A stretch of 20,838 nt of DNA from positions 1 through 20,838 of the forward strand of contig JAVBWN010000024.1 of the NCBI GenBank assembly GCA_036677365.1, given 5' to 3'. The notes under the pieces were generated by a model. That model had not been told where the DNA came from, made no database searches, and saw only the letters and a list, made by a program, of their open reading frames with translations. The translations under genes were made by a program, and so were the position numbers. This DNA comes from Acholeplasma sp. GTDB lineage: Bacteria > Bacillota_I > Bacilli_A > Acholeplasmatales > UBA5453. This document shows, in pieces, positions 1 through 4,525 of this stretch. How positions within the stretch are numbered: the first letter of the stretch is position 1; each line of letters begins with the position of its first letter.

Positions 1-65
1 ATAACGCAGCGATCAATATCAACAAAGAAGGGTTTAGAAAGTATAAGTTAGCTTTTCAGTTATAA
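1..65 (+). CDS. tnpB: C-terminal end of TnpB (IS200/IS605-family RNA-guided nuclease), truncated by window edge
   Basis: Frame from nt 3 reads NAAINI-NKEGFRKYKLAFQL-stop (TAA 63-65). NAAINI matches the tail of the TnpB RuvC-III motif DRDxNAAxNI, and a typical IS605 right end follows. Confidence 0.85.
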   Translation, partial: NAAININKEGFRKYKLAFQL

Positions 66-169
66 ACAATCAAGAACCGTAGGGACTACGGGGATAGCCT
101 ATTGAGTCACTGGCGGGTACGCTGGTATGGATAGGAAGCCCCCACTTCTGTAAGTGGTGGGTAGTTCAC
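1..169 (+). mobile_element. Right end of an IS200/IS605 (IS1341-like) element
   Basis: tnpB tail, then subterminal hairpin CCCCCACTT-CTGT-AAGTGGTGGG (139-161) and terminal GTAGTTCAC ending in TCAC at 169, after which host coding sequence resumes. Confidence 0.85.
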
Positions 170-186
170 CCAATCTAAATCTCAAG
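66..186 (+). ncRNA. TnpB omega-RNA scaffold (right-end derived) plus flanking guide (about 170-186)
   Basis: Hairpins CCGTAG-GGA-CTACGG (77-91), ACTGGCG-GGTA-CGCTGGT (109-126) and 139-161. TnpB omega-RNAs derive from the right end with a 3' guide from flanking DNA. The 5' boundary is uncertain and may overlap tnpB. Confidence 0.7.
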
Positions 187-1864: not shown

Positions 1865-2635
1865 ATGAAATATCAACAAGAACTCAATCTACTCAAAACA
1901 CATGTACCAAGAATATATAAAGAGATTGACAGCAGTCTAAAAGAGGTCTCATTCAAATCCGGTGATGAGATTGTGACGACAACCGATTTATATATCGAAT
2001 CTGAACTCATCAAAGCAATCAAACACGTTTTTCCTAATGATACTTTCTTAAGTGAAGAGTTTCATAAGGATGGCCATTTGGTCAATCGAGCATGGCTCAT
2101 TGACCCGATTGATGGGACATCCAACTACGCTGTGAACTTTGATGCTTATGTGGTTCAAATCGCTTTATATGATGAAGACGATTTGGCACTATCGTTCATT
2201 TATGTTCCAAGCAATGAAAAGATTTATTACGCCATCAAAGGTGAAGGTGCTTATTTAAACGATAAACGAATCCATGTGTTAGACAATAAAAAACCATCCA
2301 ATATGATGATGTCCATGGTTGGTTATACGAATAAAAATAGCGACAAAACATATTATGAAAAACTATTGAAGTTTGCTTTAAAAAACCAAGTCAAACTCCG
2401 AATGCTCGGTAGCATTGGCTTAGAACTCGCCATTACATCCGAAGGCATATTCACCATGTTTTATACATCCGTTAAGAATCTTTGGGATTTAGGACCAGGG
2501 GTATTACTCTGTAAAGAAGCCGGTGCCATCTTATTCAATGAAACAGGTAAATCCTATCAATTAGGGGACACACATTTGTTTGTTGTCAAATCTGAAGAAC
2601 ACAAAGAAAACTTATTAAAAGCAATCCAACACTAA
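1865..2635 (+). CDS. Inositol monophosphatase family protein (SuhB-like)
   Basis: Motifs VTTTD, LSEE, WLIDPIDGTSNY, WDLGPG. GGGGAGGT RBS precedes ATG 1865. Confidence 0.92.
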   Translation: MKYQQELNLLKTHVPRIYKEIDSSLKEVSFKSGDEIVTTTDLYIESELIKAIKHVFPNDTFLSEEFHKDGHLVNRAWLIDPIDGTSNYAVNFDAYVVQIALYDEDDLALSFIYVPSNEKIYYAIKGEGAYLNDKRIHVLDNKKPSNMMMSMVGYTNKNSDKTYYEKLLKFALKNQVKLRMLGSIGLELAITSEGIFTMFYTSVKNLWDLGPGVLLCKEAGAILFNETGKSYQLGDTHLFVVKSEEHKENLLKAIQH

Positions 2636-2663
2636 CACGCCAATCTCGGCGTGTTTTATTTTT
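2634..2663 (+). terminator. Intrinsic terminator
   Basis: AACACGCC-AATCTC-GGCGTGTT then TTATTTTT. Confidence 0.85.
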
Positions 2664-2706
2664 AAACTACTGGTTTATTGTTTCGATTAAAAAACCCTTC
2701 TATAAT
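2663..2706 (+). promoter_or_regulatory. Sigma-A promoter with an adjacent palindromic operator candidate
   Basis: TAAACTA-C-TGGTTTA imperfect palindrome (2663-2677) abuts TTGTTT (2678-2683), 17 bp spacer, TATAAT (2701-2706). Confidence 0.7.
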
Positions 2707-2713
2707 GAAACTG

Positions 2714-2820
2714 TAAAGACACATGCAGCCAACATTACTATTAAAATTATAGAGATCAAGGTTCAACCAACAACAGTCGTGTCTTGTCGTTTGAGGATAC
2801 CAGTCATGGTGTCCTCAAAC
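2714..2820 (+). ncRNA. Candidate structured leader/small RNA upstream of the DUF2828 gene
   Basis: Closing stem AAGACAC (2716-2722)/GTGTCTT (2779-2785) begins near the predicted TSS. A 14-bp hairpin (2789-2820) without a U-tract follows. Confidence 0.55.
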
Positions 2821-2841: not shown

Positions 2842-4275
2842 ATGGATGCTTTAACGTATTTCACAGATCAATTGAATATCACAGAAACCATTAATGGGGA
2901 CAAAGCTTTCTATAGCTCAGGTTCACATTGTTTGGATTTGTATGCGTTGATTGGTGGGATGAGATACCATGTAGACCAACTATATGCTATGTTCTTGAAA
3001 GCCTACTACGAAGATCGTCATATCGCATTAAAAATTTTATTATATGCGAGAGACATCAAAGGTGGTTTGGGTGAAAGAAGGATTTTCCGTATCCTGCTCA
3101 ATGGTTTGGGGAATTTCTACCCAGAAGTGGCCAGAAAACTACTACCAACCATTGAGAGGTATGGTCGATATGATGATTATTTCGCATTCATTGGAACCCC
3201 GGTTGAATCCGATGTTATGACGCATATCGAAAAACAACTAAAGGCAGATTTAGCCAATAAAGAAGCTGGCCAACCTATTTCATTATTGGCTAAATGGATG
3301 CCCTCCATTAATACAAGTAATTCAGAGACAAGAAGGCTCGCAAATGAGTTATGTGAGGCTTTGAAATTATCAAAAGCTGAATACCGAAAACAATTATCGT
3401 ATCTGCGTGATGGTCTAATTGTGGAAAACAATTTGAGAACCAAAACCCGAGTTGAAGACTATCAAACCACACCAACGAAAGCTTTATTCAAATACAAGAA
3501 AGCATTCATTCGCAGCGATGCCGATCGATTCAATGCTTTTATCCAAAATAAAGCGCCTAAAAACATGAGTACCTTGTATCCTTATGAAATTGTAAGAGAT
3601 GCCATTGAACAAGATGAAGTCGATGAAACCACCAAAGCTCTCTATCAAAAATTGTGGGACAACTACCCAAGAGCAGATTTAGATTCGCAAACCATAGTGG
3701 TTCGAGATGGGTCTGGTTCGATGTATGATGAAGGCGCGATTTACGTAGCCACATCACTTGCGATTCTCGCATCTGAGATGCTTACCGGACCATTTAAAAA
3801 TAAATTTATCACTTTCAGTTCTAGACCGCAGCTGGTTACACTAGACAAAGGCGATATTTATGATAAAATAATGACAGCCATGCATTATGGAGACTGTTCA
3901 AATACCAACATTAAGAAGGTATTTCAATTGATTTTGGATATGGCTAAGCAAAAAGATGTGAAAAGAGAAGATATGCCAAAGCGAATCTTAATCATCTCCG
4001 ATATGGAGTTTGATGGCGATGTTCATGGTATTTCGTCCTATGAGTTCTTTAAAACTGAATATGCTAAAAGTGGATACGAGTTGCCCGTTGTCGTATTCTG
4101 GAATGTTTGCGCAAGACATGTTCAACTACCTGCCTTAGAACAAGACCACGTGATTTTAGTCAGTGGTGCATCACCGCACGTATTTGATAGTATTGCAAAA
4201 AATAAATCGATCGATCCTTATGCATTTATGTTGGAAACACTGAAGAAGTATGAGGTGATTGATCAACTAATTTAA
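2842..4275 (+). CDS. DUF2828-family protein (TROVE/Ro60-like helical domain plus C-terminal vWA domain)
   Basis: Family motifs TENG-like TINGD, ARDIKGGLGER, YGRYDD, LLAKWMPS. vWA MIDAS DGSGSM, FITFS, NTN, ISDMEFD, VFWNV. GGAGG RBS before ATG 2842; the track start at 2779 lies in the leader. Confidence 0.88.
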   Translation: MDALTYFTDQLNITETINGDKAFYSSGSHCLDLYALIGGMRYHVDQLYAMFLKAYYEDRHIALKILLYARDIKGGLGERRIFRILLNGLGNFYPEVARKLLPTIERYGRYDDYFAFIGTPVESDVMTHIEKQLKADLANKEAGQPISLLAKWMPSINTSNSETRRLANELCEALKLSKAEYRKQLSYLRDGLIVENNLRTKTRVEDYQTTPTKALFKYKKAFIRSDADRFNAFIQNKAPKNMSTLYPYEIVRDAIEQDEVDETTKALYQKLWDNYPRADLDSQTIVVRDGSGSMYDEGAIYVATSLAILASEMLTGPFKNKFITFSSRPQLVTLDKGDIYDKIMTAMHYGDCSNTNIKKVFQLILDMAKQKDVKREDMPKRILIISDMEFDGDVHGISSYEFFKTEYAKSGYELPVVVFWNVCARHVQLPALEQDHVILVSGASPHVFDSIAKNKSIDPYAFMLETLKKYEVIDQLI

Positions 4276-4294: not shown

Positions 4295-4525
4295 TTGTCA
4301 AAAACATTCCCTAGTATCAACATGAAGGCAACCGGCAAAAACATTGAATCGCTACGCAAACAAAAGAACCTATCGGTCAAAGAAATCCAAGAGGTATTCG
4401 GTTTTGAGTCCCCACAAGCCATCTATAAATGGCAATGGGGAGATTCACTACCGTCGATTGACAATTTGGTTGTGTTAGCGACCGTATTTGAAGTATCCAT
4501 TATGAACATCCTAGTCATCGATTAG
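4295..4525 (+). CDS. XRE-family helix-turn-helix transcriptional regulator
   Basis: LSVKEIQEVFGFESPQAIYKWQWGDSLPSIDNL HTH_3 pattern. TTG start with AAAGGAAAGGTG RBS, 19 nt after the DUF2828 stop. Confidence 0.9.
   Translation: MSKTFPSINMKATGKNIESLRKQKNLSVKEIQEVFGFESPQAIYKWQWGDSLPSIDNLVVLATVFEVSIMNILVID

Follow-up and report, generated by a model that had tools for sequence, protein, structure and literature searches.

A covarying RNA element at the head of a DUF2828 operon in an Acholeplasma genome, linked to a protein of predicted Ro60 fold

The DNA analysed here, which we call the window, is a stretch of 20,838 nucleotides from Acholeplasma sp. (contig JAVBWN010000024.1, positions 1 to 20,838). 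It carries a short operon in which a DUF2828 gene is followed by a gene for a small helix-turn-helix (HTH) regulator, and at the 5′ end of which a 7-bp closing stem encloses a CAGCCA motif and a 47-nt insert. The features discussed below are as follows.

2634..2655, plus strand: hairpin resembling an intrinsic terminator, at the end of the inositol monophosphatase gene upstream (that ORF matches Pfam Inositol_P)
2664..2677, no strand assigned: imperfect palindrome AAACT-N4-GTTTA abutting the −35 element, conserved in the lineage
2678..2706, plus strand: promoter predicted from the sequence, −35 TTGTTT at 2678-2683 and −10 TATAAT at 2701-2706
2716..2787, plus strand: RNA unit, from sequence, covariation, covariance model and fold; 5′ stem strand 2716-2722, linker 2723-2725, core CAGCCA 2726-2731, insert 2732-2778, 3′ stem strand 2779-2785, conserved unpaired G2786
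2734..2756, plus strand: inner hairpin of the predicted fold, with a 7-nt loop, UAAAAUU
2760..2768, plus strand: GGTTCAACC, which is no T arm; paired with core positions 2727-2730 in the predicted fold and unconserved in the lineage
2789..2820, plus strand: 14-bp hairpin without a U tract (fold prediction, z −7.1)
2842..4275, plus strand: DUF2828 and DUF7788/vWA protein of 477 aa (Pfam), with a predicted Ro60/TROVE ring fold
4295..4525, plus strand: HTH_3 (XRE) regulator of 76 aa (Pfam), likely co-transcribed

The RNA unit ends 55 nt upstream of the DUF2828 gene and lies on the same strand. An initial annotation of this DNA had proposed a 7-bp stem joining the two ends of a small RNA, and this stem is present: AAGACAC (2716-2722) faces GTGTCTT (2779-2785), and the predicted fold gives all seven pairs ensemble probabilities of 0.90-1.0. 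The enclosed loop, which had been described as largely unpaired, is predicted to be structured, 2727-2730 pairing with 2760-2763 (p 0.83-0.93) and 2738-2741 with 2749-2752; the former pairing, of GGTT with the core, is also predicted for the units of two related loci, L001 and L024. A T-loop-like element, and with it a tRNA-like T arm, had been read into GGTTCAACC (2760-2768). We rule this out, as no 4-5 bp stem surrounds the element and its sequence is not conserved, the counterpart being GGTTCTTC in L001 and AGCTTAACC in L184. The inner hairpin at 2734-2756 breaks the anticodon-loop rule, with no U at 33 and no purine at 37, and by the insert rules that we applied across the family the window insert has no conforming anticodon arm and no T arm either. 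ARAGORN found no tRNA or tmRNA in the whole window, and a search against Rfam, recommended in the initial annotation, found no family at the unit when run on the whole window and on 2690-2830. When only the 74 nt from 2714 to 2787 are folded, the result is within chance (z −1.42, with 17 of 200 shuffles equally good), and the support for the unit is therefore comparative. In the 1.97-Mb genome to which the window belongs (G000), a covariance model that had this unit in its training set matched only here, and a looser rule gave 13 matches of which by eye only the window unit fits the family consensus. Its core, CAGCCA, is a rare variant (2/169 units). The window unit is a single, minimal member of the family described below.

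The TATAAT at 2701-2706 makes a start near G2713 plausible, a few nucleotides before the stem as had been predicted, and TATAAT also lies 10-13 nt upstream of the stem sequence AGACAC in L001, L013, L016, L025 and L026. A promoter scan omitted this promoter because its −35, TTGTTT, fits at only three of six positions. The hairpin at 2634-2655 would insulate the operon from the inositol monophosphatase gene. Neither the palindrome at 2664-2677 nor the 14-bp hairpin at 2789-2820 had been recorded with this unit in the initial annotation. The palindrome motif recurs in L001/L023, L024, L025, L026, L043 and L184, and one of the five AAACT-N4-GTTTA palindromes in G000 has a −10 at the matching spacing; it is a candidate regulator site, and a candidate for autoregulation with the small HTH_3 gene, a homologue of which stands directly after the DUF2828 gene in L001/L023, L024, L025, L026, L039 and L047. 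The hairpin at 2789-2820 keeps its structure with changed letters in L001, L024 and L184, and likely protects the 3′ end of the RNA or marks a processing or pause site; the predicted RNA is 75 nt long, or 108 nt including this hairpin. GGAGG (2832-2836) and ATG 2842 follow downstream. A longer ORF beginning at GTG 2779 would overlap the 3′ stem strand, and ATG 2842, with GGAGG and the agreement of homologues, was preferred as the start.

RNA libraries from three studies contain the locus. In three of six RNA runs, from two studies, assembled contigs begin at 2724, 2725 and 2735 (two of these three starts having adapter ends) and pass through the hairpin into the coding sequence; in five of the six they end at 4497-4507, and two DNA runs continue past this point. 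Assembled contigs of this kind cannot reveal RNA ends and are consistent with read-through, and their extents give a weak hint of one leader-DUF2828-HTH transcript; window stretches without RNA cover are no sign of silence. That there is one copy, placed between promoter and start codon, that a hairpin follows near the ribosome site and that contigs span both unit and coding sequence could all be taken to mean that the unit is a cis leader element only, through which the protein or some other factor tunes read-through or translation, with no RNA acting in trans. The arrays of up to six units found in relatives, the units placed after the gene or amid tRNA genes, and their tRNA-shaped inserts argue against this account, which we consider rather unlikely; leader control may instead be a second role of the window copy. 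Separately, an element at the end of the contig (window positions 1-170) is repeated at 12 other places in G000 with 90-97% identity and gives a weak Rfam match to Ref70; we take it to resemble the end of an IS200/IS605-type element.

We compared the window with 21 initial homologue loci, further loci and 80 viral loci. The shared layout is a 7-bp stem, 2-4 nt, CAGCAA, an insert of 13-156 nt, the second stem strand and a G. A strict rule found at least one such unit in 36/43 bacterial and 59/80 viral loci, a tally from which five loci were dropped (duplicates, or lacking upstream DNA) and in which near-duplicates remain; by the same rule 27 bacterial loci have two to six units, relatives overall having between one and six. 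The repeated units beside DUF2828 genes that the initial annotation had mentioned are real. Because this rule does not allow a G before the core, the window unit and those of L024 and L043 escape it. To assess covariation, anchors were chosen by their 5′ sequence alone, not by pairing: 128/162 have their own complement plus G downstream, compared with a mean of 24.9 and a maximum of 37 in 200 permutations of the 5′ strands, and after dereplication the figures are 98/121 against 18.3. An alignment of 40 units, which were hand-picked as pairing and are therefore descriptive only, has changes on both sides at six of seven stem pairs, an invariant G and a common AA before it. The CAGC motif is likewise retained, so that the covariation of the closing stem and the conservation of CAGC that had been expected are both found. 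In the family at large, unlike the window unit, the core tends to be unpaired (median 0.72, with 24/135 below 0.5).

The element is also tied to the gene. A covariance model built from the 40 units matched in 15/121 genomes, namely in 14/18 with a DUF2828 gene, ten of these 14 being from the training set and four not, and in 1/103 without, where the lone match is antisense within an ORF; the four gene-positive genomes without a model match carry variant units. Matches to the exact pattern in three gene-less genomes are all antisense inside ORFs. Under the strict rule 202 units in 123 loci are on the strand of the gene and one is on the opposite strand. Many of the loci are related, and all these tallies overstate independence. 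What these results establish is an RNA element that is conserved, covaries, keeps to one strand and accompanies a gene for a predicted Ro60 fold; the unit is one copy of it, and we have hardly any doubt that it is real as RNA. The stem arms do form an inverted repeat and recur in tandem, which could suggest a DNA element (a repeat, recombination site or operator), but stems with G-U pairs, a one-stranded core that follows gene orientation 202 to 1 and tRNA arms within inserts make action as DNA scarcely credible.

The family is absent from Rfam 15 and is uncatalogued and undescribed. No description of this RNA was found in the literature searched, some likely relevant reviews being beyond the reach of the search; the searched parts of the supplements of Fremin and Bhatt and of Chen et al. 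contain no such RNA, the former having one unrelated mention of DUF2828, and in the literature, as far as its text was available, DUF2828 is mentioned for plants and a tardigrade assembly. Two further observations concern the loci themselves. In L132 (G119:C1) the units are on a contig other than that of either DUF2828 gene, and one insert has D-, anticodon- and T-like arms. In L002, L003, L006, L012, L013, L015, L016, L018 and L019 a TCGCA(A/G)CTTTTTT motif precedes the promoter, upstream of the first unit, and is half of a palindrome in some loci. By eye the upstream gene at these loci had seemed to encode a WYL-type regulator, but the ORFs sent to Pfam matched no family at E 1e-8.

The protein itself matches DUF2828 and DUF7788 in Pfam, vWA weakly, and PHROG 850 with an E of 2e-102; the closest named relative among the compared loci is Paracholeplasma vituli, whose protein is 68% identical. 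NCBIfam and PDB sequence searches, single and profile, returned no match for it, Pfam found no nuclease domain, and a look-up in the Atlas with the L001 homologue returned DUF2828 clusters only. The TROVE profile PF05731 matched neither the protein nor anything else in G000, and as a control it matched in both D. radiodurans and B. thetaiotaomicron. For structural comparison the query was an AlphaFold2 model built on 19 aligned rows (pLDDT 76, pTM 0.72). The top 12 Foldseek matches were all Ro60/TROVE (best 9kop, E 1.3e-8, TM 0.56), and VIA aligned 337-401 residues of Ro60/TROVE structures at Z 13.3-14.5 and rmsd 4.8-6.4, the next-best being lone vWA domains at Z 9.4 or less. A vWA DxSxS motif occupies residues 289-293, with D289, S291 and S293 invariant in the homologue alignment, and 19/21 conserved K/R residues precede residue 280, that is, they lie in the helical domain. 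From this model the DUF2828 protein is predicted to have a Ro60/TROVE ring fold, with helical repeats closed by a vWA domain. The link in fold is not new, as one phage record names a homologue 'Ro-like RNA binding protein'. Within the genus the gene is patchy (3/10 genomes), and in G023 it has an internal stop and is split, its start and the unit being on another contig (L039 G023:C11, L043 G023:C90).

Many inserts of relatives resemble parts of tRNAs. Hairpins of anticodon type, defined by 5 bp and a 7-nt Y-U-N-N-N-R-N loop with T loops excluded, occur in 25/135 dereplicated inserts compared with 3.5 in shuffles (maximum 10 of 300), although part of this excess is generic structure since shuffling destroys any hairpin; 7-nt loops are the most enriched (52 against 21) and 4-nt loops are enriched too (44 against 23). 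T arms are present in 11/135 inserts, against 0.23 in shuffles. The anticodons include Lys UUU (8), Asn, Asp, Tyr, Met, Cys and Gly. Larger tRNA-like parts also occur: sub-threshold matches to YrlA, of 38-41 bits, fall inside units of L005, L008 and L014, and an Rfam tRNA match of 44.6 bits lies within a unit at L017:2884-2955. Another tRNA-like gene sits inside a unit of L049, some 1600 nt upstream of the DUF2828 gene, and comprises a Met (CAT) arm together with D-like and T-like elements. RtcB adjoins the gene in 13/25 bacterial loci, several of them kin, and RlaP and Thg1 do so in one each, in a neighbour scan covering 60 of the 84 listed bacterial ORFs. In the window's genome, which is 99.9% complete, RtcB has no match and PNPase is present.

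The DUF2828 protein family has matches in 710 GenBank phage records. Downstream units were found in 24/80 viral loci and are exclusively downstream in 12. Phage MsGreen has three units after the gene (gene 54), one with what is by eye a permuted tRNA domain, and Felixounavirus TP1 has four among its tRNAs (found by script, with weak or no model score); in Vibrio phage ValKK3 the model had no match within 3 kb. The units are not annotated as RNA in the four phage records that were opened. One MsGreen unit is annotated as a hypothetical CDS of 30 aa, and the third unit (L161:4170-4233, MK878900) overlaps hypothetical gene 55, possibly a false CDS.

With its constant scaffold, its varying middle part and its frequent arrays, the family calls to mind a guide that would direct the protein to a complementary target, and the initial annotation had suggested such a role, or that of a decoy, for the loop. 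The comparison with genome, tRNAs and phages that it had advised was run, and matches were at chance level: the longest exact match of the window insert to the rest of G000 is 15 nt (12-16 in shuffles), its best match to the 38 tRNAs of that genome is equalled by 25% of shuffles, and its best match in GenBank phages has an E of 0.2. The insert is nearly identical in G009, where only 113/157 four-fold sites of the coding sequence are identical, and it drifts in G005, which indicates gradual change between species, not swapping. Inserts in general vary widely in length, fold on themselves and drift between species, and the protein has no nuclease domain that Pfam could find. A guide role for the window copy is largely refuted by these results, and we regard it as very improbable. 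The decoy idea is supported by the tRNA-shaped inserts of the family but not by the window insert, which mimics no tRNA.

In our preferred reading, which we think probable, the unit is a stem-closed element at the predicted 5′ end of its operon and a Y-RNA-like partner bound by the downstream Ro60-type ring. That the DUF2828 protein binds the unit is likely, and 'DUF2828 ligand', the term of the initial annotation, is the best reading because units are repeated, the stem covaries, CAGC is kept and the fold is predicted to be that of Ro60. The mechanism that we propose is predicted from Ro60/Y RNA biology as presented in the accessible text of four papers (PMC4201824, PMC12135203, PMC7790460, PMC7824862). 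Transcription of the operon would start at about 2713, and the leader would be freed as an RNA of 75-110 nt via processing or pausing at the 2789-2820 hairpin. The basic outer surface of the protein's helical part could then grip the closing stem and core, as Ro60 does the base of a Y RNA, with the insert serving as swappable cargo. The tRNA-shaped cargo of relatives (an anticodon arm, a T arm or a permuted tRNA domain) might divert anticodon nucleases, as a decoy, or connect to enzymes of RNA repair and decay, as an adaptor. The window copy, because it has no intact tRNA cargo and G000 no RtcB match, would keep the basic role only, gating and stabilising the ring; its RNA perhaps tethers the ring to PNPase, as in RYPER, or perhaps feeds back on its own operon.

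The same sparseness could be taken as decay, the window copy being a remnant, with little function left, of a larger Ro-like/RtcB repair module: one unit, a rare core variant, no tRNA cargo, no RtcB in the genome and a gene found in only 3/10 genomes of the genus would all fit. We hold this to be unlikely. Relatives with 68-70% identical proteins retain the stem, the core, the hairpin, the palindrome and the −10, the G009 insert is nearly identical despite the divergence at four-fold sites, and the locus is present in the RNA libraries of three studies.

Returning to the reading of a Y-RNA-like partner, a broader proposal may be ventured, tentatively and with the balance somewhat against it: DUF2828 and its CAGCAA-stem RNAs could form a second, independent Ro/Y-type RNP system of bacteria and phages, in which one protein-binding base displays interchangeable tRNA parts (anticodon arms of Lys, Asn, Asp, Tyr, Gly, Met and others, T arms and permuted tRNAs) as a programmable rack of decoys or repair adaptors in conflicts over tRNA cleavage, from which the Class I RNAs of social amoebae descend and of which the window locus is a minimal, cargo-free form. 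A large family of unknown function, spread over 710 phage records and many gut and soil bacteria, gains a candidate RNA partner and a testable role, and the design of Ro60 with a small RNA would here use another recognition motif. Inserts with anticodon arms point to a way in which phages and their hosts may absorb or repair anticodon-nuclease damage, an idea that could be tested with a mycobacteriophage on M. smegmatis. The likeness to Class I gives a starting point for understanding RNAs so far believed to be confined to social amoebae, and the window copy, a plain member, is a useful minimal substrate for binding.

Class I RNAs (RF01414) are reported in dictyostelids only in the available text of Kjellin et al. 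(2021, PMC7919456), from which the following comparison is drawn. Features in common with the present family are a short stem that joins the ends and shows compensatory changes, an invariant G preceded by AA, a variable middle, clustered genes and, beside the 5′ strand, a largely unpaired conserved motif that has C at 6 and 9 and A at 10 and 11. Their median length is about 60 nt and that of the family 65. The Class I stem has 6 bp; the family stem, counted from the G, has 5 bp plus two outer pairs. At the 3′ end Class I has CUGU, the window unit CUUGU (2783-2787) and the family C-U-U-G-U/A, a difference of one base at this end as in the stem register. The motif was compared through five positions named in that text and the rows of outgroup candidates: of T3, C6, C9, A10 and A11 the window unit has C6, C9 and A11 (3/5), and the family has A10 in 110/112, A11 in 103/112 and T3 in 33/112, the core being part of the detector. 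The known Class I partner is an RRM protein, Rnp1A, where here the proposed partner is the DUF2828 protein. RF01414 had no match at the window unit at its cut-off of 41.5 bits; in five genomes its best match was 26.9 bits, none falling at known units and the inspected stretches having no family closing stem, and in five viral loci it was absent from the matches up to an E of 2. On the text available, the unit resembles Class I RNAs and is not a member of that class.

The closest known counterpart is the Ro60 (Rsr) of bacteria and phages with its Y RNAs, for which we again draw on those parts of the cited papers that were available. Y RNAs share with the family a 5′/3′ closing stem and a short conserved 5′ motif, and an adjacent same-strand gene of Ro60 fold, often with several RNAs per locus and beside RtcB; a bacterial Y RNA is a discrete RNA of about 80-130 nt. 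In M. smegmatis a single precursor encoded upstream of rsr is cleaved to give YrlA and YrlB (Chen et al. 2014, PMC4201824); phiLo Ro60 has Yrl1/Yrl2 (PMC12135203); an rsr-yrlBA-rtcBA operon is known (PMC7790460); and an inhibitor idea was raised for YrlA by Hughes et al. Some relatives share the permuted T-acceptor-D tRNA domain of YrlA (RF02553), whereas the window unit has no tRNA domain, and the family's cargo comes in modules, among them isolated anticodon arms that the accessible text does not report for YrlA. The proposed protein partner differs as well, being DUF2828/DUF7788 and not PF05731 and only 8-17% identical to solved Ro60s, as does the motif, CAGCAA on a 7-bp stem and not the Ro-binding GNCGAA; no CGAA occurs in 2713-2822, and RF02553, with its Rfam score of 69 bits, has no match at the window unit. 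The cultured-phage proteins labelled 'RNA-binding protein' in PHROG 850, or 'Ro-like RNA binding protein', belong to the same protein family as that of the window. With a stem that joins its ends and, within 4 kb on the same strand, a gene whose model predicts a Ro60 fold, the unit shares these traits with Y RNAs; lacking GNCGAA, a PF05731 partner and a YrlA-level score, it is not a member of that class but probably works like one.
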